64,000 bases of DNA from a virus: the IMG/VR virus record IMGVR_UViG_3300033998_000198, positions 32,001 to 96,000 of that record. One strand, written 5' to 3'. A program made the translations under genes and the position numbers. Positions 2,652 to 64,000 of the stretch are shown piece by piece; positions within the stretch are counted from its first letter, which is position 1; every line of letters starts with the position of its first letter. The notes below the pieces were generated by a model, which was not told the origin of the DNA, made no database searches, and worked only from the letters and a program-made list of their open reading frames with translations.

Positions 2652-4961
2652 ATGATCGCATTTCGCAACTTATACCCAAATCTTCCAGGTCATCTGGTAG
2701 AGTTCAAGGATGGCGGATTGGCTCTCAGAGTTGAAGCAGATCCACCAAAAACCGACAGTATGCTCATTCTCGGAACCGCAATTGACGGTCCTGTTATGGA
2801 GCCTGTAGCTGTAGATGCAACTACTGCTGAATTGCTGTTCGGTAAGGCAGTAAAGGGTAACGGCGTACCCAATGGATCAACACTGATTCCCGCATTTGAA
2901 GAAGCATGGAACGCTGGATGCCGTGATATTCGTCTTATGAGGATATCTGGTGATTACGCCGTAGCGGAAATCAAAGCTGAAGATTTAACATCAACAACCC
3001 AGAAGCTCAAGACAGAACAGTTAGGAGTTGCCCCAGGTAATGATGAAACAGTTATTACACTGGCAAACAAGCATATCGTTCCTAACTCTGCAAAAGTATA
3101 CGTAAAAGGCACTCAGCTTCTGACAGGCTTTACTGTTGATGAAGCAGCAGGTAAGGTAACCATTGCTGCTGGTGTTGACGATGCTGGGGCGTCAGTATCT
3201 GTAAGTTACAAATACTTCGCTATTGAAGATGTCGCTAACGAAGCGGCTACTGTAGAAGGAGGCAAAGTAACACTTACATATGATATTGACTCTATAGTGT
3301 CCATTAAAGTCAATGGAGATCCTGCAACACCCGTTTATACTGTGTCCGGAAAAGACATTACTTTTGAGTCCGGCGTTGCTGAAGGTGACAACGTAGCTGT
3401 TACATACAAAGGTATCACTACTAACGAAATCACCGCTCAGGAGAACGGAACCGGTACTGATCCTTTCCTTACTGCAACATCTTTGATGGTAGTGCCAATC
3501 GGACAGAGCCCTGTTCCCGGAACAATGCATCTGTATGCTAACGGAACTGAAATCCTCACTTCCGGAGCTTTCACAGTTGACGGTACTGCAAAGACCATCA
3601 GTATAAAGAAGGAAATGGTTTCTAAGGGAGCTCTCCTTGAAATCAGCTACATGTATAACGAAACTGCAACTCAGACTCCTAAGATTGAAATAACATCCAT
3701 ATATGGCGGCGAAGTTTACAATCAGGCAAAAGTTGAAGTTGTAGATGTCAAGGACTCCAGCGGTAATGTAATGGGTAAGAAAGTTATTCTTACCAAACCC
3801 GAATCCAAGAAAGCACAGGTCGCAGAAGAACCTTTGAGCTACAGCTCACTGGATTATCCGAACTTCATGCTCTTGGTACAGGCAATCAACAACGACCCGA
3901 TGAATAATGTGTTCAAGGCTTCAACTAAGTTCAACAACGTTGAAACCTCCAAGTTGTTAACCAAAACCCCAACTTTCTTTCTCGGTGGAGCAGATGGAAT
4001 CAACCTCACAAAAGAGGAATTGTTCGAAGCTCTGTCTGGTAAGAGAAATGAAGCCGGCCTGTTGACTAAACAGGGAGCGTATCAGTTGCTCGAAGATTAT
4101 CAGGTTGACTGGGTCGTTCCTGTTGGTGTTTATGCTGACGACGAACTTCCTGGTAAATTCCAGAACTTTGCATATGAGCTGGCTATGTTCTGTGCGGTTC
4201 TCTCCTACAGGAACAAGATGACCTTCGGTGCAATCAATATGAAGCCTGTAGAAGACACCGGTCTGTCTTCAATTCAGGAACACGCTAAGAAACTTGCTGC
4301 ATTCGAGAACCTCTACTACATGAGAGATTCATACGGCAATATAATCAAAGACAGCAACGGAAACTTTATCGATCTCGGAGGATTCATTAACGTTGTTGCC
4401 GGACCTGAAATAGCTGTTAGAGGCACAAGCCTTGGAACATATAACGCAGATCCTGCGGTTTCATATGTTGCATTCAGTACGACACTGAATCCTCAGTCCG
4501 CAGCAGGCAATAAGACAATACCTAATGGTAGGGGGCTTCGTTACAGATTCTCCAATGCACAGCTCGACAGTATCGTCGCAAGACGTTTAACCGTACTGAA
4601 ACTCAAACAGGACGGCAGCGTTTCTGTAGTAGATGATGCAACCTGTGCAGCTCCTGGTTCTGACTACGCAAGAAGAACCACTGGTAAGGTTGTAAGAGAA
4701 GTCGTCGATCAGATCAGAGAAGTCTGTGATCCTTTCATCGGCGAACCTAACACAATCGAACAGAGAAACGCAATGTCTGCCACCATCAGTAAGAGACTTG
4801 GACAGTTGAAAGATGCTGGAGTAATCCAGGACTATGACTTCCAGGTAGTTGCAACATTGCAGGATCAACTGCTTGGTCAGGCAAAGATCGAGTTAACCCT
4901 CGTTCCACCTCAAGAATTGAGGAAGATCACTACAGTTGTAAGCCTCAAGCCTTCTCTGTAA
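2652..4961 (+). CDS. Major tail sheath protein with inserted Ig-like modules (769 aa)
   Basis: Strong AAGGAGG RBS. Sheath N-terminal motif (GTAIDGPV..PV) and C-terminal sheath domain (RVVREVVDQIREVCDPFIGEPN...IELTLVPPQELRKI). Central beta-rich inserts end in VSVSYKY / VAVTYKG / LEISYMY. Confidence 0.9.
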   Translation: MIAFRNLYPNLPGHLVEFKDGGLALRVEADPPKTDSMLILGTAIDGPVMEPVAVDATTAELLFGKAVKGNGVPNGSTLIPAFEEAWNAGCRDIRLMRISGDYAVAEIKAEDLTSTTQKLKTEQLGVAPGNDETVITLANKHIVPNSAKVYVKGTQLLTGFTVDEAAGKVTIAAGVDDAGASVSVSYKYFAIEDVANEAATVEGGKVTLTYDIDSIVSIKVNGDPATPVYTVSGKDITFESGVAEGDNVAVTYKGITTNEITAQENGTGTDPFLTATSLMVVPIGQSPVPGTMHLYANGTEILTSGAFTVDGTAKTISIKKEMVSKGALLEISYMYNETATQTPKIEITSIYGGEVYNQAKVEVVDVKDSSGNVMGKKVILTKPESKKAQVAEEPLSYSSLDYPNFMLLVQAINNDPMNNVFKASTKFNNVETSKLLTKTPTFFLGGADGINLTKEELFEALSGKRNEAGLLTKQGAYQLLEDYQVDWVVPVGVYADDELPGKFQNFAYELAMFCAVLSYRNKMTFGAINMKPVEDTGLSSIQEHAKKLAAFENLYYMRDSYGNIIKDSNGNFIDLGGFINVVAGPEIAVRGTSLGTYNADPAVSYVAFSTTLNPQSAAGNKTIPNGRGLRYRFSNAQLDSIVARRLTVLKLKQDGSVSVVDDATCAAPGSDYARRTTGKVVREVVDQIREVCDPFIGEPNTIEQRNAMSATISKRLGQLKDAGVIQDYDFQVVATLQDQLLGQAKIELTLVPPQELRKITTVVSLKPSL

Positions 4962-31587: not shown

Positions 31588-32142
31588 ATGGGTGTGTACA
31601 AGTCAAGTAATACAATTCCAGGAACAAGTGACTGGTTGCAACCATCCAGCAACTTAATTCGTGGAAAGGACGATAATCCTTTAGCCGATCTTGACGCAAA
31701 GACTTCCTGGATTGGCCACCATTCACAATCAGAACCCGGTCTTGTCCATCCTTTTACAACATCTGTTGTAAAAATGAGGGATAATGGAATGATTGATATA
31801 TTTGTATCAACAAACCAAGGAATCAGGGTAGATCCAAACACACGTTCTATTACAATTATGGTTGACAACACAAAGATTAGAACACATGATTACAGAGCGT
31901 GGGTTGAGAATCACAGCATCACAAACGTAAGAAAGAACTTTGAAGCCAATGCTGATGTTAATATTAACCTTAATGCAAAGAAGGATATTAACATGAAGGC
32001 CAATGGTAAATGGAATGTAAACATTGTTGGTGATGTCAATATCCATACAGACAGCAACTTGAATGTAAGTGCTAACGGAAAGATGACATTCAAGGCCGGA
32101 GGGGATATAGACTTTAGCGGATCAAGGTATATCTGGAGGTAA
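31588..32142 (+). CDS. Central spike beta-helix protein (184 aa)
   Basis: Start moved from 31447 to ATG 31588 (GGAGG RBS at 31574-31578). Periodic beta-helix repeats NINLNAKKDINMKANGKWNVNIVGDVNIHTDSNLNVSANGKMTFKAGGDIDFSG. Confidence 0.75.
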   Translation: MGVYKSSNTIPGTSDWLQPSSNLIRGKDDNPLADLDAKTSWIGHHSQSEPGLVHPFTTSVVKMRDNGMIDIFVSTNQGIRVDPNTRSITIMVDNTKIRTHDYRAWVENHSITNVRKNFEANADVNINLNAKKDINMKANGKWNVNIVGDVNIHTDSNLNVSANGKMTFKAGGDIDFSGSRYIWR

Positions 32143-58464: not shown

Positions 58465-60458
58465 GTATTAGTCAAAGACAAATCCAAACGGTAACCGATA
58501 AGGCGGTGGAAACTTTGCTAAAGGCCGGACAACTGCCTAATACTGCTGATATTAACAAGTATGTCGATACATTCTTTGCCGGTAAAACTCCCGGGCTGCC
58601 TTATTACAGACCAACAGAAGTTGCAGAAGGAGAAGTTTCAGATCCTGATAGCTACAACAGAATGTTTCAGGATCTCAAAACAGACCTTGATACAATTTTT
58701 TCTGAGAACATATACCAGAATAATAGAATTGTATCAATGTTTGATTACTATGCAACTGAGAAGGAACGCCTGGATGCAGCGGTTGAAAAACTGCAACTGA
58801 GAGTTGACGGTCTGCTCGATTCCCTAAAGTCCAGTAAAGCAACTGAAGGATTCATTGAATCATTTAATAATTTCTATGGAGTTGAGCTATACGGCGATAA
58901 GGCCCGAAATATTCCGAAGACTTCTGCTTTTGTCGACCTTGTGCAGAGAAAAGTATATAATGAGAAGCTGACACGACCGCAAGATAAGATTGATATTTCA
59001 TCAGCCTCAATAACTATAACTCCTGTAACAACCATTAACGGCTCAACTGTCCTTGGTGCTGCCGAGAATATATTAAAAGATTCAACCAATGAAACCTGTA
59101 CGTGGATATTCACCAAAAACGGAGACGGAGAATGTATTATAGAGCTGCTTGTAAAGATGAAAGATGCTGCAACGGCAAGTTCTGTTGTAATTAACACCAA
59201 GTCAACAAAGGCTGCCAATATTAGCCTTCAGATATCTGAAGATGATGTTAATTATAAAGACTTAATGGATATTGATACAGCTTCGTTTGCTGAATGGAAT
59301 TTTAACAGAACGCCTGTGAAATTTATGAAGTTCAGAATTAAGAAATATGAGCCTGATGGCGATACCGGTTCTTCAAGTGAATATTACTTTACAATCTGCA
59401 ATATATCGCTTGTAAACGACAATTTCATGAACAAGAATGTATTTGTCAGTAAACCGATAACCATAAACAAAATCCCCGACAAGGCTACATTGATAACGGA
59501 AGACGTAATCTATCCAAATACCGATATCAAATATTATCTTGGGATAGACAACGGGATCGACAAAGTTGACTGGAGATTAGTTCAAAGCGGAGTGCCATAT
59601 GACTTTGGCCTTCTTACTCCAAGACGTGAGATTGTTACCAACAATGTAAGTCCTTACAACTATGACGGCAAAGTGTCGAGGATATGCAAACTTCATGAGA
59701 ATACGGACAAAAATACAATTAACCTTATGCTTGGATACCAGATGTGGTTTCATGAAAGGTTCAGTTTGCCTGACTCTGTAGTAAATGAAACCGACGCTTC
59801 TGGGAGAAATATCTTCGAACCAGGAATTGGCCAAATGATTTACCCAAAGATCGGCAATTCATTCTATGATTGCGAGATATACGATCTCAATGTTAAGGCT
59901 GGAGAGCTGAACGTATATACACAGTATGTAATATGCGGTCAGGATGTTTCTATCAGTCATAGAAAAATCATTGGCAGCGTGAAGCATTCGATTTATGTCA
60001 ATAATATCGTAGTGCAGCCAATAGACGGGAAGTATACGATCAATCTGGTAAAGGGTATAAATAAAGTCCAAATGTGCATTTATTCATATTCAGACACAAC
60101 AGTGTCCCACAATATCAATATGAAGAACGCTTCATTTGATATTTATTGTAGGCTTGCACTCAGGCAGGTTACAGAACACAACCTTATATCCAACACTAAG
60201 GACGAGGATCTGAATTTCTTCGCTGTAGATTCAGAAGGGTATATTATTGTGAAGTACGACCCGAAAAAAGCCGGGTTGTGTTACAATATAAATAATGATG
60301 ATTTGATTCGTTATGTAGTTGAGTATAAATATATACCGAACGATGTATTAACTGCCTACCCGGATAATACTCTGAAGATCAGGGTAATGGCGACGCTGAC
60401 AAGTTCGTATGACGACATTTCGCCTCAAATCATGAACTACAGGATTATATCTGAATAG
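58461..60458 (+). CDS. Appendage-family paralog (665 aa)
   Basis: YNRMFQDLKTDL, ILKDSTNETCTW and IRVMATLTSS...SPQIMNY motifs. Confidence 0.6.
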   Translation: MSISQRQIQTVTDKAVETLLKAGQLPNTADINKYVDTFFAGKTPGLPYYRPTEVAEGEVSDPDSYNRMFQDLKTDLDTIFSENIYQNNRIVSMFDYYATEKERLDAAVEKLQLRVDGLLDSLKSSKATEGFIESFNNFYGVELYGDKARNIPKTSAFVDLVQRKVYNEKLTRPQDKIDISSASITITPVTTINGSTVLGAAENILKDSTNETCTWIFTKNGDGECIIELLVKMKDAATASSVVINTKSTKAANISLQISEDDVNYKDLMDIDTASFAEWNFNRTPVKFMKFRIKKYEPDGDTGSSSEYYFTICNISLVNDNFMNKNVFVSKPITINKIPDKATLITEDVIYPNTDIKYYLGIDNGIDKVDWRLVQSGVPYDFGLLTPRREIVTNNVSPYNYDGKVSRICKLHENTDKNTINLMLGYQMWFHERFSLPDSVVNETDASGRNIFEPGIGQMIYPKIGNSFYDCEIYDLNVKAGELNVYTQYVICGQDVSISHRKIIGSVKHSIYVNNIVVQPIDGKYTINLVKGINKVQMCIYSYSDTTVSHNINMKNASFDIYCRLALRQVTEHNLISNTKDEDLNFFAVDSEGYIIVKYDPKKAGLCYNINNDDLIRYVVEYKYIPNDVLTAYPDNTLKIRVMATLTSSYDDISPQIMNYRIISE

Positions 60459-60469
60459 GAGTGAGGTCA

Positions 60470-60721
60470 GTGATATATCCGATTGGGGTAAAAGAAAACA
60501 GTAGATACCGTGGTCCGATAGAAAGCATTAAAACACTTAGAACCAACGGTGATATTGAACAGAACATCAAACTGCTGTATAATAAATTTATGGAGCTTGA
60601 GGAATTAAATACCTATATTAAAACAGTCCTTGATGATAACAACATATACAAGTCTCACAGGGATATCAAGGTAATAGACGGCAATACGAGCTCATTTATA
60701 AAGGAGGCTGACAACAGTTAA
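60470..60721 (+). CDS. Small structural protein whose last codons are supplied by the inserted element (83 aa)
   Basis: GTG 60470 with GGAG RBS (alternative GTG 60461). Ends KEADNS* using element sequence; the reconstructed empty allele ends KEAMVNG*, overlapping the ATG of 62641. Confidence 0.55.
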   Translation: MIYPIGVKENSRYRGPIESIKTLRTNGDIEQNIKLLYNKFMELEELNTYIKTVLDDNNIYKSHRDIKVIDGNTSSFIKEADNS

Positions 60722-60775
60722 GAAAAATTTATAAAATTTTATAAAAATCTATACACAATTTATAAAAAATCCCAC

Positions 60776-60943
60776 CTATTTGGTAGGATTGGTATATTTG
60801 ATAATTAAATCTTGTAATGCTTCATCAAGCAATTTAGACTTAGGAATTTTAGTGTCTTTGCTTAACTTTTCAAATGCTTCATAGATTTTTATATCTACTG
60901 CGTTTGAGATGGGTTTTCTGTTTTTAAGACCTCGATTATTCAT
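60776..60943 (-). CDS. Ribbon-helix-helix DNA-binding protein (55 aa)
   Basis: ATG at 60943 preceded by AGGAGGTG (60949-60956, minus strand); MNNRGLKNRKPISNAVDIKIYEAFEKLSKDTKIPKSKLLDEALQDLIIKY is a typical clostridial RHH pattern. Confidence 0.8.
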   Translation of the reverse strand: MNNRGLKNRKPISNAVDIKIYEAFEKLSKDTKIPKSKLLDEALQDLIIKYTNPTK

Positions 60944-60969
60944 AAAATCACCTCCTAAAAAATATTGTA

Positions 60970-61015
60970 CAACTACTTTTAAATACTTGCAACTACTTGT
61001 AGTTTGTAGTAAAAT
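60970..61015 (+). promoter_or_regulatory. Sigma-A-like promoter for tnpB overlapped by AACTAC/GTAGTT operator-like repeats
   Basis: TTGCAA (60987-60992) - 17 bp - TAAAAT (61010-61015). CAACTACTT direct repeats at 60970 and 60990; inverted GTAGTT at 60999 and GTAGT at 61006. Confidence 0.6.
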
Positions 61016-61028
61016 AATAATTAGGAGG

Positions 61029-61258
61029 TTCACTATAGTTAATAAAAAGTTATAAAAAGTCATAAATTAATGAAATATGAAAAATCAGCATAATTCACTT
61101 AACGAATTATGTTGGTATGTACGGTGTCGTTACATCGGAATTTAAGCCTTTGGAGAGTCATACCAAACGCAAGTAGGATTCCGAAAGCGGACTCTATGAA
61201 TAAGGAAAAGAACATAAAAGTTATAATTTTATAACTTTTTATAAGTTTCTTATAACGG
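61029..61258 (+). mobile_element. Nested 230-bp MITE-like mini-element (left end + tnpB 3' remnant + omegaRNA/right end)
   Basis: GG at both junctions (TTAGGAGG|TTCACTATAGTTAATAAAAAG...TATAACGG|TGAAACGAATG). Left end aligns with the outer left end (GG + 10 nt + TTAA). Contains remnant KYEKSA* versus tnpB end NYGKSIA*. Removal restores AGGAGGTG-AAACGA-ATG. Confidence 0.8.
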
Positions 61259-61278
61259 TGAAACGAATGATTAGAACC
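61090..61278 (+). ncRNA. Second omegaRNA-like scaffold (inner element) with predicted guide TGAAACGAATGATTAGAACC
   Basis: Homologous to 62455-62631: identical GGAATTTAAGCCTTTGGAG (61137-61155 vs 62495-62513), shared CCGAAAG hairpin, covarying stems (CGGTGT-CGTT-ACATCG vs CCGATT-CGTT-AGTCGG). The 5' boundary is approximate. Confidence 0.7.
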
Positions 61279-62454
61279 TACAAAGTAATGCTTTTACCTA
61301 ATAACAAACAAAGAATAAAGCTGTTTGAATGTGCTGGAGTTGCAAGATGGGCATACAACTGGGCATTAGAACAGCAACAGATTAACTATAAAAATGGTGG
61401 TAAATTTTTAGATGATAAAACTTTAAGAAAAAGGCTAACAGAACTTAAACAGACAGAAGAATACAAGTGGCTTAATGACTATTCAAATAACATTACAAAA
61501 CAAGCAATAAAAGATGCCTGTATTTCTTATAAGAACTTCTTTGAAGGTAGAGCCAAATTACCAAAGTTTAAATCTAAGAAAAGAAGTAAACAAAGTTTTT
61601 ATCAAGATACTGATAAAATTGTTGTAACAGATACTCATGTTAAATTAGAGAAACTAACTACTTCTAAAAAGAAAAACAAACAAAAATTAAATTGGATTAA
61701 ATTATCTGAAATAGGCAGAATGCCGATAGGTGAAAACATAAAATACTCTAATCCACGCATAACATTTGATGGTCTAAATTGGTGGTTATCAATAGGAGTA
61801 GAAGAAGATATAAAGCAAGATAGTTCTAAGTATTCAGAAGGGATTGGTGTAGATTTAGGAGTAAAGGATTTAGCAGTAGTTAGCACAGGGCAAAAGTTTA
61901 AGAATATAAACAAGTCAAACAAAGTAAAGAAACTTGAAAAGATGCTTAGAAAACTACAAAGAAAACTATCTAAAAAATATGAGTTGAATAAAATTGAAAC
62001 AGAAGGAGGTGAATACCGTTACAGAAAGACTAAAAATATTAAAAAGTTAGAATTCCTTGTTCTAAAGGTGCGAAGAAGGCTTAAAAACATAAGGCACAAT
62101 TATATTCATCAGACAACTACATCTTTGGTGAGAAGCAAGCCTGAATATGTAGTAATGGAAAGTTTAAATACTTGCGGGATGTTGAAGAATAGAAAACTGT
62201 CAAAGGCAATACAAGAACAAGTTTTTCATGAGTTTAAAAGACAGATGGAATATAAGTGTGCATGGAATGGAATTAAGTTTATACTTGCAGATAGATTTTA
62301 TCCTTCAAGCAAAACTTGCAGTAGATGTGGCAATGTAAAGGATACCCTATCCTTATCAGAAAGAACCTTTATATGTGATAGATGTGGATATGAAATAGAT
62401 AGGGACTTAAATGCAAGTATAAATCTTAAAAACTATGGTAAATCAATAGCATAG
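61267..62454 (+). CDS. tnpB: RNA-guided endonuclease TnpB (IS607-associated; 395 aa)
   Basis: MIRTYKVMLLPNNKQ start (ATG 61267 preferred to GTG 61258). RuvC triad GVDLG, VVMESL and DRDLNAS(IN) intact; CSRCG/CDRCG zinc finger; FYPSSKTC motif. Confidence 0.95.
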   Translation: MIRTYKVMLLPNNKQRIKLFECAGVARWAYNWALEQQQINYKNGGKFLDDKTLRKRLTELKQTEEYKWLNDYSNNITKQAIKDACISYKNFFEGRAKLPKFKSKKRSKQSFYQDTDKIVVTDTHVKLEKLTTSKKKNKQKLNWIKLSEIGRMPIGENIKYSNPRITFDGLNWWLSIGVEEDIKQDSSKYSEGIGVDLGVKDLAVVSTGQKFKNINKSNKVKKLEKMLRKLQRKLSKKYELNKIETEGGEYRYRKTKNIKKLEFLVLKVRRRLKNIRHNYIHQTTTSLVRSKPEYVVMESLNTCGMLKNRKLSKAIQEQVFHEFKRQMEYKCAWNGIKFILADRFYPSSKTCSRCGNVKDTLSLSERTFICDRCGYEIDRDLNASINLKNYGKSIA

Positions 62455-62651
62455 CACCAGACGCAACTATTGATATGTACCGATTCGTTAGTCGGGAATT
62501 TAAGCCTTTGGAGTGTCAAGCAAACATGAGTAGGTTTATCCGAAAGAGGACATGATGAACAAGGAAGGAAACATAAACTTTTATAAGGTTTAAGGAAAAT
62601 CTTATAGAATTTTATAAGTTTTCTGTAACGGCAATGGTCAATGGATAACGT
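62455..62651 (+). ncRNA. Cognate omegaRNA of tnpB with predicted guide CAATGGTCAATGGATAACGT from the right flank
   Basis: Structured region between the tnpB stop and the right end (TAACGG at 62626-62631); hairpins covary with the inner copy. The guide position follows the established TnpB rule. Confidence 0.75.
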
Positions 62652-63873
62652 ACCATCCTTTAGAAAACAAGAAGTAAAGTTCAGATCAACTGCATCCAGC
62701 GAACAATACAATCAGATGCAGGACAGTGCACTTTATGATATCCTGAATCTTTTCAACAAAGCAAACAAGCTGGAAAGCGATCTTTTAGACACAAAAGACA
62801 TCGTCTTTACTGAGAATAAGTATATGCAGTTGAAGATCCAATCCCTTGAAGCAAAGTTGGCCACGATGGCACAGCTATATAAAGATCTGACTACTGCCGG
62901 GAATAAATTAATGACGCTCAACGTATATCCGAACCAGATGTATATAAACAGCTCATCCAGCGTTCCTGCATTTGTAGATACTGCCTGCATGGATGTAACG
63001 CTTCCGTTTGCCTCAAAAACAAGCAAGGTTCATGTATATGACGACGTATCCGACACTGTGTTTATTCCTGATTCATTGGTTGCTGAGAACAGTATAATAA
63101 CACCGACCAAAGGAATCATCGAAATTACAGAGAATGATATCATGAATGCGTTCAACGGAAACAACAGTTCTTACTGGAGAAAAAAAGTAATTACCGACAA
63201 TACTGTAAACGAAGTAAACATGCAGATTGTCATAGGGCTTCCTGAAGACATTATATCAAACAGGGAAATCAATGCAGTTATCTTCTCTCCATTCCCATAT
63301 GGCTCACTTGATCTGGTAAATATCGAATACAAATTGTTCGGCGACTGGACCCAGATTCCTTCATTTAGCGAGCACTCCGAAGGAACGCTCGAATCATATT
63401 CCGATGTTTTCGGTAATATAAGTTATAAACCGATTATTCCAGGAGTAGGTAACATTAAGTTCTGTTTCAATGACATCAGTGCATCTGAACTCAGAATCAC
63501 TGTAAGACAAAGAAACTACACACAGGAGAATGGTAACCGGGTATTTTATCTTGGTGCCCGTGAAATTGAAATAGTCAATTATAAGTACAATAAAGATGTA
63601 GCTACATTCTATACAAAAGTTATATTCCCAGGCAATCCTGTTAAGGTTGTGTGTGATATACAATCTATATTGAATAACCAGGGAGAAATCGGGAAGAATG
63701 TTGTACAGTATGAAATGTTCACACTGGACGACTATGATCGGCCATCAAAGATAACAAAGGGATTTCCCTTTGAAATATCTAACGGTAAAATGCTTGTCAA
63801 GTGTGACATTTACAAAAATAATACTTCGCCGGCATTAAATAAGATAAAAGTTATTTATAAAGAAAAAATATAG
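62641..63873 (+). CDS. Appendage-family paralog (410 aa), separated from its native RBS by the insertion
   Basis: YNQMQDSALYDI, AFNGNNSSYW and MLVKCDIYKN..SPALNKI motifs; only ACGG remains upstream as an SD. Confidence 0.65.
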   Translation: MDNVPSFRKQEVKFRSTASSEQYNQMQDSALYDILNLFNKANKLESDLLDTKDIVFTENKYMQLKIQSLEAKLATMAQLYKDLTTAGNKLMTLNVYPNQMYINSSSSVPAFVDTACMDVTLPFASKTSKVHVYDDVSDTVFIPDSLVAENSIITPTKGIIEITENDIMNAFNGNNSSYWRKKVITDNTVNEVNMQIVIGLPEDIISNREINAVIFSPFPYGSLDLVNIEYKLFGDWTQIPSFSEHSEGTLESYSDVFGNISYKPIIPGVGNIKFCFNDISASELRITVRQRNYTQENGNRVFYLGAREIEIVNYKYNKDVATFYTKVIFPGNPVKVVCDIQSILNNQGEIGKNVVQYEMFTLDDYDRPSKITKGFPFEISNGKMLVKCDIYKNNTSPALNKIKVIYKEKI

Positions 63874-63884
63874 GAGGTGCTCTT

Positions 63885-64000
63885 ATGAAAAAGACGCTAT
63901 GTTTGCTGCTTGTTCTTGTTATTGCTTTTGTTTCAATACCTGTTTTTGCTGTGTATGACAATTCTAAAGTTTACACTGTGATTGGCAATGACAAGTATTA
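63885..64000 (+). CDS. 3'-truncated protein with Sec signal peptide
   Basis: TAGGAGGTG RBS; MKKTLCLLLVLVIAFVSIPVFA|VYDNSK (basic N-region, hydrophobic core, V-F-A cleavage site). Confidence 0.7.
   Translation, partial: MKKTLCLLLVLVIAFVSIPVFAVYDNSKVYTVIGNDKY

Follow-up and report, generated by a model that had tools for sequence, protein, structure and literature searches.

A gene-less, guide-RNA-bearing mini-element nested in the tnpB ribosome site of another IS607-family element in phage populations, with a probable homing mechanism

Introduction

A clade of IS607-family TnpB nucleases is guided by reRNAs derived from RAGATH-18 (PMC11061315). Among 22 strains, the TAM of these RAGATH-18 IS607 TnpBs was reported to be AGGAG in 18 and GAGGG in 4, and every single mutation of the TAM abolished cleavage by the ISFba1 TnpB (PMC11061315). 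According to the same study, the reRNA begins 13 nt past the tnpB stop codon, the guide comes after a conserved 3' flank, and non-autonomous derivatives lacking tnpA are common in this IS607 group. The serine recombinases of IS607 elements cross over at GG without duplicating the target, and their excision is scarless; the TAM is at the same time the integration site, and homing proceeds by cleavage of the empty site (10.1101/2023.11.20.567912).

The window analyzed here is the whole stretch of 64,000 nt that covers positions 32,001 to 96,000 of the virus record IMGVR_UViG_3300033998_000198. Coordinates are those of the window unless another source is given, and features lie on the + strand unless stated otherwise. 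The window contains an IS607-family element of 1924 bp (hereafter the outer element) and, in its tnpB ribosome site, a second element of 230 bp (hereafter the mini-element). We are fairly confident in reading the locus as a 230-bp IS607-family element nested in the tnpB ribosome site of the 1924-bp element, with the homing mechanism set out in the Discussion.

The closest described system is the ISFba1-type IS607 TnpB (PMC11061315), with which the locus shares the homology of TnpB, the RAGATH-18 core with its flanks, the 13-nt start of the reRNA, the order of right end and then guide, and AGGAG on the 5' side of the target. It differs from the ISFba1 type in that an Arc-like RHH gene stands in the outer element where the MerR-resolvase tnpA would be, in that the outer element lies in a phage at the ribosome site of a virion gene, and in that the inner element is gene-less. 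The IS607 homing model (10.1101/2023.11.20.567912) shares with the locus the GG junctions, the absence of a duplication, the use of the TAM as integration site and Arc-like ORFs (fig. S2 of that work). In both, the sequence just inside the right end does not match the TAM, being TAACG here and TCGG in CboIStron, which protects the occupied site. In contrast to that model, the locus has no group I intron, its TAM is AGGAG and not TGGG, and the target of the guide is the tnpB start of another element.

Two further systems resemble the mini-element. Like the PATEs (10.1101/2023.03.14.532601), it is protein-less, retains both ends and a guide scaffold, and takes TnpA and TnpB from elsewhere; unlike them, it belongs to the serine-recombinase IS607 elements and not to the Y1/HUH IS605 elements, and it is polymorphic within the ribosome site of another element. 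With homing endonuclease genes and introns in phage genes it shares a selfish and polymorphic nature and a nuclease specificity that matches the empty allele, whereas here an RNA that copies the flank sets the specificity and the innermost element carries the RNA alone. The parts are all precedented, namely IS607 TnpB, RAGATH-18 guide RNA, the AGGAG TAM, Arc-like genes and gene-less derivatives. In the titles and abstracts of the literature, we found no paper that reports the nesting of a guide-only element within the ribosome site of tnpB, and none that links the AGGAG TAM to the Shine-Dalgarno sequence.

Results

Outer element and its phage setting

The outer element occupies 60708-62631 (1924 bp, the mini-element not being counted separately). 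It consists, in this order, of a left end, an RHH gene, divergent promoters, tnpB, the reRNA and a right end that reads GTAACGG, and the left-end profile of the family matches at its left end. The sequence before it is AGGAGG (60702-60707), which is both the ribosome site of a phage gene and the target of the outer element, with the TAM AGGAG at 60702-60706 followed by G. Phage virion-region ORFs flank the element at 60461-60721 and 62641-63873, with AT-rich foreign DNA between them. The outer element thereby separates the ribosome site of a phage virion gene from its start codon.

The tnpB gene (61267-62454) encodes a 395-aa protein that has a zinc ribbon and the D-E-D motifs of RuvC. The Pfam domains of the protein are Cas12f1-like_TNB, OrfB_IS605 and HTH_OrfB_IS605. 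Its best solved relative is ISFba1 TnpB (PDB 8IAZ, E 1e-68), and the segments GVDLGVKD, VMESLN and DRDLNAS align with the catalytic motifs of 8IAZ. A TldR-type repressor was rejected because the catalytic D, E and D of RuvC are all present. The scaffold of the outer reRNA (62468-62631) begins 13 nt past the tnpB stop codon and terminates in GTAACGG. Its RAGATH-18 core (62505-62566) scored 53.5 bits in Rfam, the gathering score of RAGATH-18 being 44.9.

No match to a Resolvase or Y1 tnpA was obtained in the 132-kb record (61% complete), and the RHH gene takes the tnpA position. Since the outer element has no tnpA inside while its relatives carry one, it is a non-autonomous derivative. Since the record as a whole has no tnpA, every copy in it depends on a helper. 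An assignment to IS200/IS605 (Y1) was rejected on the basis of the GG junctions, the relatives with MerR-resolvase tnpA and the lack of a Y1_Tnp match. An IStron was rejected as well: the Rfam search of 60000-64000 (E up to 1) returned RAGATH-18 and a weak chance match but no group I intron, and the 5' flank ends in G, not in U.

The accessory RHH (Arc-like) gene is located on the - strand at 60776-60943 (55 aa; Pfam RHH_3, E 9e-13). It lies within the 1924-bp mobile unit, and homologues are found at the equivalent position in a related locus (L023) and in a second copy in this genome. This second copy (copy 2) is an element with RHH and tnpB genes at L002:1501-3097 on the - strand, corresponding to genome positions 125163-126759. 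It contains no mini-element, and its TnpB is 62% identical. GGGAGG precedes the insertion, and the ATG of a phage gene encoding 107 aa follows it at a distance of 8 nt; the tnpB start of copy 2 reads AAGGTGGTGATAGAATG.

A consensus scan placed a putative tnpB promoter, TTGCAA-17-TAAAAT, at 60987-61015. As promoter-like sites are no more frequent in the region than in shuffled sequence, the assignment is a guess from sequence. The predicted divergent promoters of the RHH gene and tnpB (60944-61022) share the palindromic -35 element TTGCAA at 60987-60992. Direct repeats CAACTACTT at 60970 and 60990 are candidate operators for the Arc-like protein.

The insertion alters both neighboring phage genes. 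The left end supplies the upstream phage ORF with an in-frame ..AAC AGT TAA (NS-stop) that replaces the natural C-terminus (60708-60721), and the same NS-stop is contributed by the left end of copy 2 (L002 near 3083-3097, - strand). In the empty phage the upstream ORF would end in ..FIKEAMVNG-stop and overlap the start of the next gene. After the insertion the downstream gene keeps TAACGG, not AGGAGG, before its start (62620-62643), as is also seen in the right-end flanks of L008-L038. Despite TAACGG before the start of the virion gene, the occupied phage is common (in the sequencing runs X1 and X3).

Target preference of the family

For comparison, 32 relatives were taken from IMG/VR. Nearly all of them terminate in TTTTCAGTAACGG, and many have MerR-HTH plus resolvase tnpA directly before tnpB. 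In the homologous tnpB genes, no insert interrupts GGAGGTGAAA..ATG. GG at both junctions is a signature of the IS607 family, since the serine recombinase crosses over at GG. Left flanks were gathered with the left-end profile from the copies of this genome and from related loci. All 21 distinct flanks end in GG; 11 of them end in GGAGG, and the rest in GGGGG, GAAGG, AGAGG, TGAGG or AAAGG. On the other side, an ORF of at least 60 aa starts 3-14 nt downstream of 18 of the 35 distinct right ends, compared with 6% of random positions. Removal of copies 1, 2 and 3 restores in each case the AGGAGG or GGGAGG of a phage gene followed by 8-9 nt and ATG. The TAM of this family is in effect a Shine-Dalgarno sequence. 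As the family targets ribosome-site-like AGGAGG in general, the ribosome site of tnpB is an ordinary target.

Several related layouts were observed. Copy 3 (L003:1501-2047, - strand; genome 111460-112006) has no tnpB, and a phage gene has its ATG 8 nt downstream. It gives two RAGATH-18 matches, a good one of 64 bits and a weak one of 26 bits, and has an internal AGGAGG/TTCACT junction; mini-elements may have piled up here too, nested or in tandem. In L014 (2916-3000), an 85-nt unit made of a left end and the right-end tail TTTTCAGTAACGG, with no scaffold, is located 8 nt before the ATG of tnpB. In L017 (2889-2911) and also in L033, 22 nt of a right end, located upstream of tnpB, are fused to a 3' remnant of tnpA. 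The layouts of L014 and L017 suggest recurrent rearrangements made by the recombinase, or a composite of a nested left end with an outer right end. A loose search pattern of a right end followed by a tnpB start hit 65 loci, all of them chance matches except L097, which is the contig of L014.

Anatomy and boundaries of the mini-element

The mini-element is a non-autonomous IS607-family element of 230 bp (61029-61258), which is gene-less and carries a guide RNA only. It begins with TTCACTATAG and ends with TTATAACGG. On its 5' side is AGGAGG (61023-61028), the original ribosome site of tnpB, of which AGGAG (61023-61027) is the TAM of the mini-element and is followed by G. On its 3' side TGAAACGAATG follows directly, and the ATG of tnpB is at 61267. 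The original ribosome site is now 230 nt further from this ATG, while in a contig of run X3 it is contiguous with TGAAACGAATG.

The left end (61029-61072, 44 nt) matches the left-end profile of the family with an E-value of 2.6e-7. It is followed by a tnpB stub at 61074-61094, KYEKSA*, which comprises the last seven codons of a tnpB gene with the stop codon at 61092-61094; this stub is the only coding remnant, and an intact protein-coding gene is absent. The reRNA scaffold extends from about 61108 to 61257 or 61258, where the right end terminates in ATAACGG. Its RAGATH-18 core is at 61147-61207 (Rfam RF03064, 69.3 bits, E 5.6e-13). A sequence-only reading of this DNA had described a 230-bp insert that splits AGGAGG from TGAAACGAATG, with GG at both junctions, and had divided it into a left end similar to that of the outer element, the KYEKSA* stub and a second scaffold. 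The insert and all of these parts are present at 61029-61258, and GG stands before each junction.

The boundaries were further analyzed with Logan contigs. Loose ends of contigs begin at 61258/61259 or stop just before 61023-61027. Since these loose ends have differing flanks at both boundaries, the boundaries of the mini-element are valid at other insertion sites, too. A scan of IMG/VR with the 27-nt left end of the mini-element gave no match beyond this genome. Within the genome, 27 nt at L004:1501-1527 (- strand; genome 98829-98855) are 100% identical to the left end. This left-end copy is preceded by GGGGG, lies upstream of a dCMP-deaminase-like gene and has no right end. A loose end after 61259 in run X4 resembles the L004 site, where the full mini-element may be present in other variants.

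Three alleles in natural populations

The locus is present in four runs of a single subsurface-metagenome study, whose contigs were placed on 60400-62900. The allele data come from Logan contigs, not from reads, so that missing mixed alleles within one run are no evidence of fixation.

In run X3, a 919-nt contig with a depth of about 50 represents the outer element without the mini-element. It covers 60400-61026 and then 61257-61346, skipping exactly 230 nt with a 3-nt ambiguity (GGT) at the joint, where it reads AGGAGGTGAAACGAATG. This is the junction that had been predicted for a copy lacking the mini-element; when looked for, it was found in X3 with the sequence of the TAM plus the guide, and with no differences across the guide-matching part. 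The X3 empty allele could be ancestral, or it could be a product of precise excision. Searches for the empty junction as GGAGGTGAAACGAATGATTAGAAC in the IMG/VR scan and as GGTGAAACGAATGATTAGAAC in JGI metagenome contigs found no match.

The phage without the outer element was found as a skip of 1924 nt, at a depth of 223 on a 67.6-kb contig of X4 and at a depth of 13 in X1. The joint runs from 60705 to 62630, has the ends GG..AC with a 3-nt ambiguity (GGC), and reads AAAGGAGG joined to CAATGGTCAATGG. This skip of 1924 nt defines the outer element as 60708-62631, including the RHH gene. The doubly occupied state was found in the same runs: X1 contigs with a depth of about 34 cross all four of its junctions, and X4 contigs with a depth of about 6-7 cross both junctions of the mini-element and the right junction of the outer element. 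The outer element is thus polymorphic, with depths of about 223 (empty) and 6-7 (element) in X4 and of about 13 (empty) and 34 (occupied) in X1. Both insertions are scarless presence/absence polymorphisms with a GG core and no target duplication. Runs X5-X20, among them six RNA runs, contain small shares of the stretch (0.05-0.13), and X5 contains a diverged relative of tnpB.

The summed contig depth over the mini-element region is 16,000-112,000 in X1 and X4, compared with 6-220 for the phage, an excess of hundreds- to thousands-fold, and one 84-nt unitig, which matches 61132-61215 without differences, reaches a depth of 19,843. From these depths and the differing flanks, the mini-element or its parent is highly multi-copy or abundant in these samples, at other sites as well. 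One or more abundant genomes in the X1 and X4 samples carry very many copies of the mini-element or its parent.

Two similar scaffolds at one locus, together with a core that is extremely abundant in the same samples, might be joined by an assembly chimera or by the collapse of a tandem repeat. We regard such an artifact as highly improbable. Independent contigs from X1 (388 nt and 1429 nt) and from X4 bridge the junctions of the mini-element into unique sequence of the outer element, and the separate run X3 shows an empty allele of exactly 230 nt less with the GG ambiguity typical of IS607 recombination. The site reconstructed by removing the insert also matches the GGAGGTGAAA..ATG of the homologues.

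Parentage of the mini-element

A 35-nt word of the inner scaffold matched seven metagenome contigs, of which six contain full elements and the seventh (L110) another deletion derivative. Over positions 34-230, the mini-element shares 96.5-98% identity with the 3' end of the full elements (L104-L109), which come from other metagenomes. The parental layout consists of a left end, a promoter TTGACATTTATAAT..TATAAT, tnpA (MerR plus Resolvase), a tnpB gene of 404 aa and the reRNA. The parental left ends closely resemble that of the mini-element and are preceded by AGGAGG, TGGAGG or AGAGG. At 61068-61072 the mini-element contains TAATG, the microhomology of its internal deletion joint. Loose ends of contigs show the 3' end of tnpB before 61068 and the parental promoter TTGACATTTATAAT... 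after 61072, in agreement with L104-L110. These data show that the mini-element arose by internal deletion at TAATG from a full-length element.

The parental TnpB and the outer TnpB are 52-55% identical. As the parent belongs to another IS607 lineage, the outer element was not the source of the mini-element. The earlier description of the insertion as lying in the "cognate" tnpB, the element's own, was in this respect inaccurate: the mini-element is 96.5-98% identical to L104-L109, and the TnpB of that lineage is the one that is 52-55% identical.

Scaffolds and predicted guides

A consensus fold of the reRNA was computed with RNAalifold from 27 aligned reRNA regions and comprises 32 pairs. Compensatory changes are present at 19 of the 32 consensus pairs among the 27 sequences. 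The inner RNA makes all 32 pairs. Between the inner and outer RNAs, which are about 77% identical in the core, both sides differ at 4 pairs and one side at 5 pairs. The compensatory stem changes noticed in the sequence-only reading are accordingly real. The flanks of the inner scaffold are equal in length to those of the parents with an intact tnpB. With all of its structure preserved and about 98% identity to the scaffold of intact-tnpB elements, the inner scaffold was at least recently functional.

The predicted guide of the inner reRNA is located at 61258-61278, 3' of the right end as in the published layout (PMC11061315), and consists of G plus TGAAACGAATGATTAGAACC, the guide being taken as the 20 nt that follow the scaffold. 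It spans GGTGA (the residual ribosome site), the ATG of tnpB and the first four codons, the start codon included. No second match to it was found within the 132-kb record. In the empty allele the target is AGGAG followed by GTGAAACGAATGATTAGAAC; the guide matches this allele by construction, since it is copied from the 3' flank. The tnpB start of copy 2 (AAGGTGGTGATAGAATG) provides no target for the inner guide. The predicted guide of the outer reRNA (62631-62651) spans the start of a 410-aa phage gene (ATG at 62641), and AGGAG directly precedes the match to it in the empty phage allele in the X4 and X1 contigs.

It is worth considering another explanation, in which the mini-element is a bystander with no selected role: the tnpB ribosome site would merely be one of many AGGAGG sites, the insertion would do no more than damage a dispensable gene, and the inner RNA would be used by no TnpB present in the infection. 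The record holds 81 AGGAGG and 185 GGAGG sites, and the family lands at such ribosome-site-like sequences in general. The mini-element is of a different lineage from the outer element. Moreover, tnpB is dispensable to the phage, since genomes without the whole element dominate X4. Against this explanation, the scaffold is fully intact and has retained its near identity (about 98%) to those of intact-tnpB elements, and a terminus like the right end directly before a tnpB start is also seen in the independent relative L014. In addition, a hit on the ribosome site of tnpB is mildly unlikely, with a post hoc chance of roughly 1-4% for one to three mini-type insertions and 81-185 sites. We consider the bystander explanation possible but somewhat doubtful.

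Discussion

Our preferred reading is that of a nested element that spreads by homing. By analogy with the described IS607 systems, a serine recombinase TnpA acting in trans would have carried out the integration, with the crossover at GG in the target AGGAG+G. A compatible TnpB loaded with the inner RNA would then cut only those copies of this outer element that are un-invaded, beside the AGGAG TAM. By the same analogy, the parental type would certainly be compatible and the outer TnpB possibly so. Recombination with an invaded genome would subsequently copy the mini-element in, and invaded copies would be spared because TAACG replaces AGGAG. The loss of the TAM in the invaded copy, as claimed from sequence at the outset, was borne out: TAACG stands where the empty allele has AGGAG, and the TAM is strict (PMC11061315). 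The parental TnpB occurs in the same communities and should accept the inner scaffold. Use of the heterologous scaffold by the outer TnpB, which is only about 54% identical to the parental TnpB, is no more than possible.

The insertion may also affect the expression of tnpB. It would exchange a strong ribosome site for GGTGA and put a TnpB-binding RNA into the tnpB leader, so that the output of tnpB probably falls. In sequence, the predicted weakening of the Shine-Dalgarno region is indeed found, AGGAGGTGA being reduced to ACGGTGA. The predicted promoter would place the whole mini-element in the tnpB leader, and TnpB bound to the leader RNA could repress or cut its own mRNA. In silico, the left and right ends pair with each other in folds of the leader, and about half of the start region is accessible whether the leader is invaded or empty, so that the folds do not tell the two forms apart.

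The arrangement could instead be a self-limiting leader, with the inserted reRNA regulating mainly in cis, in which TnpB binds the scaffold in the 5' UTR and either holds the tnpB start as a "guide" or trims the mRNA, resulting in negative feedback. GGTGA, the ATG and codons 2-4 all fall within the guide, the predicted promoter is upstream of the insert, and a published study reported that TnpB makes guide RNA by processing its own mRNA (PMC10278001). On the other hand, the outer TnpB and the parental TnpB of the mini-element share only about 54% identity. Rather than being conserved, the arrangement is recent and polymorphic, and among relatives it has one counterpart (L014), which lacks the scaffold. 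We therefore regard a self-limiting leader as quite unlikely.

The sequence-only reading had gone as far as proposing a homing and expression-tuning circuit. The term "circuit" is overstated, since AGGAGG ribosome-site-like targets are general in this family and the lineage of the mini-element differs from that of its carrier; the standard logic of TnpB homing is what applies. A stronger version of the homing reading can still be formulated. The mini-element would act as a guide-only "drive" on another TnpB element: in co-infection or replication, TnpB with the inner RNA would cut all un-invaded tnpB starts, recombination would turn these copies into invaded ones, and the RNA in the leader would allow TnpB to throttle its own translation. 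Its nested left end could in addition pair with the outer right end to give a new, shorter tnpB element, of which L014 may be a hint. We think this version unlikely.

As for the meaning of the locus, a guide-only element has been caught within the ribosome site of the nuclease gene of another element, which is new. Also new is the presence of all three allelic states in natural phage populations of one study. With three natural alleles, the TnpB homing model becomes testable on uncultured material, and the empty and invaded alleles give ready-made target and non-target sequences. A further new point is that about half of the collected sites have an element between the ribosome site of a gene and its start codon. 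If the "drive" version were true, a gene-less parasite would both spread through and throttle its carrier.
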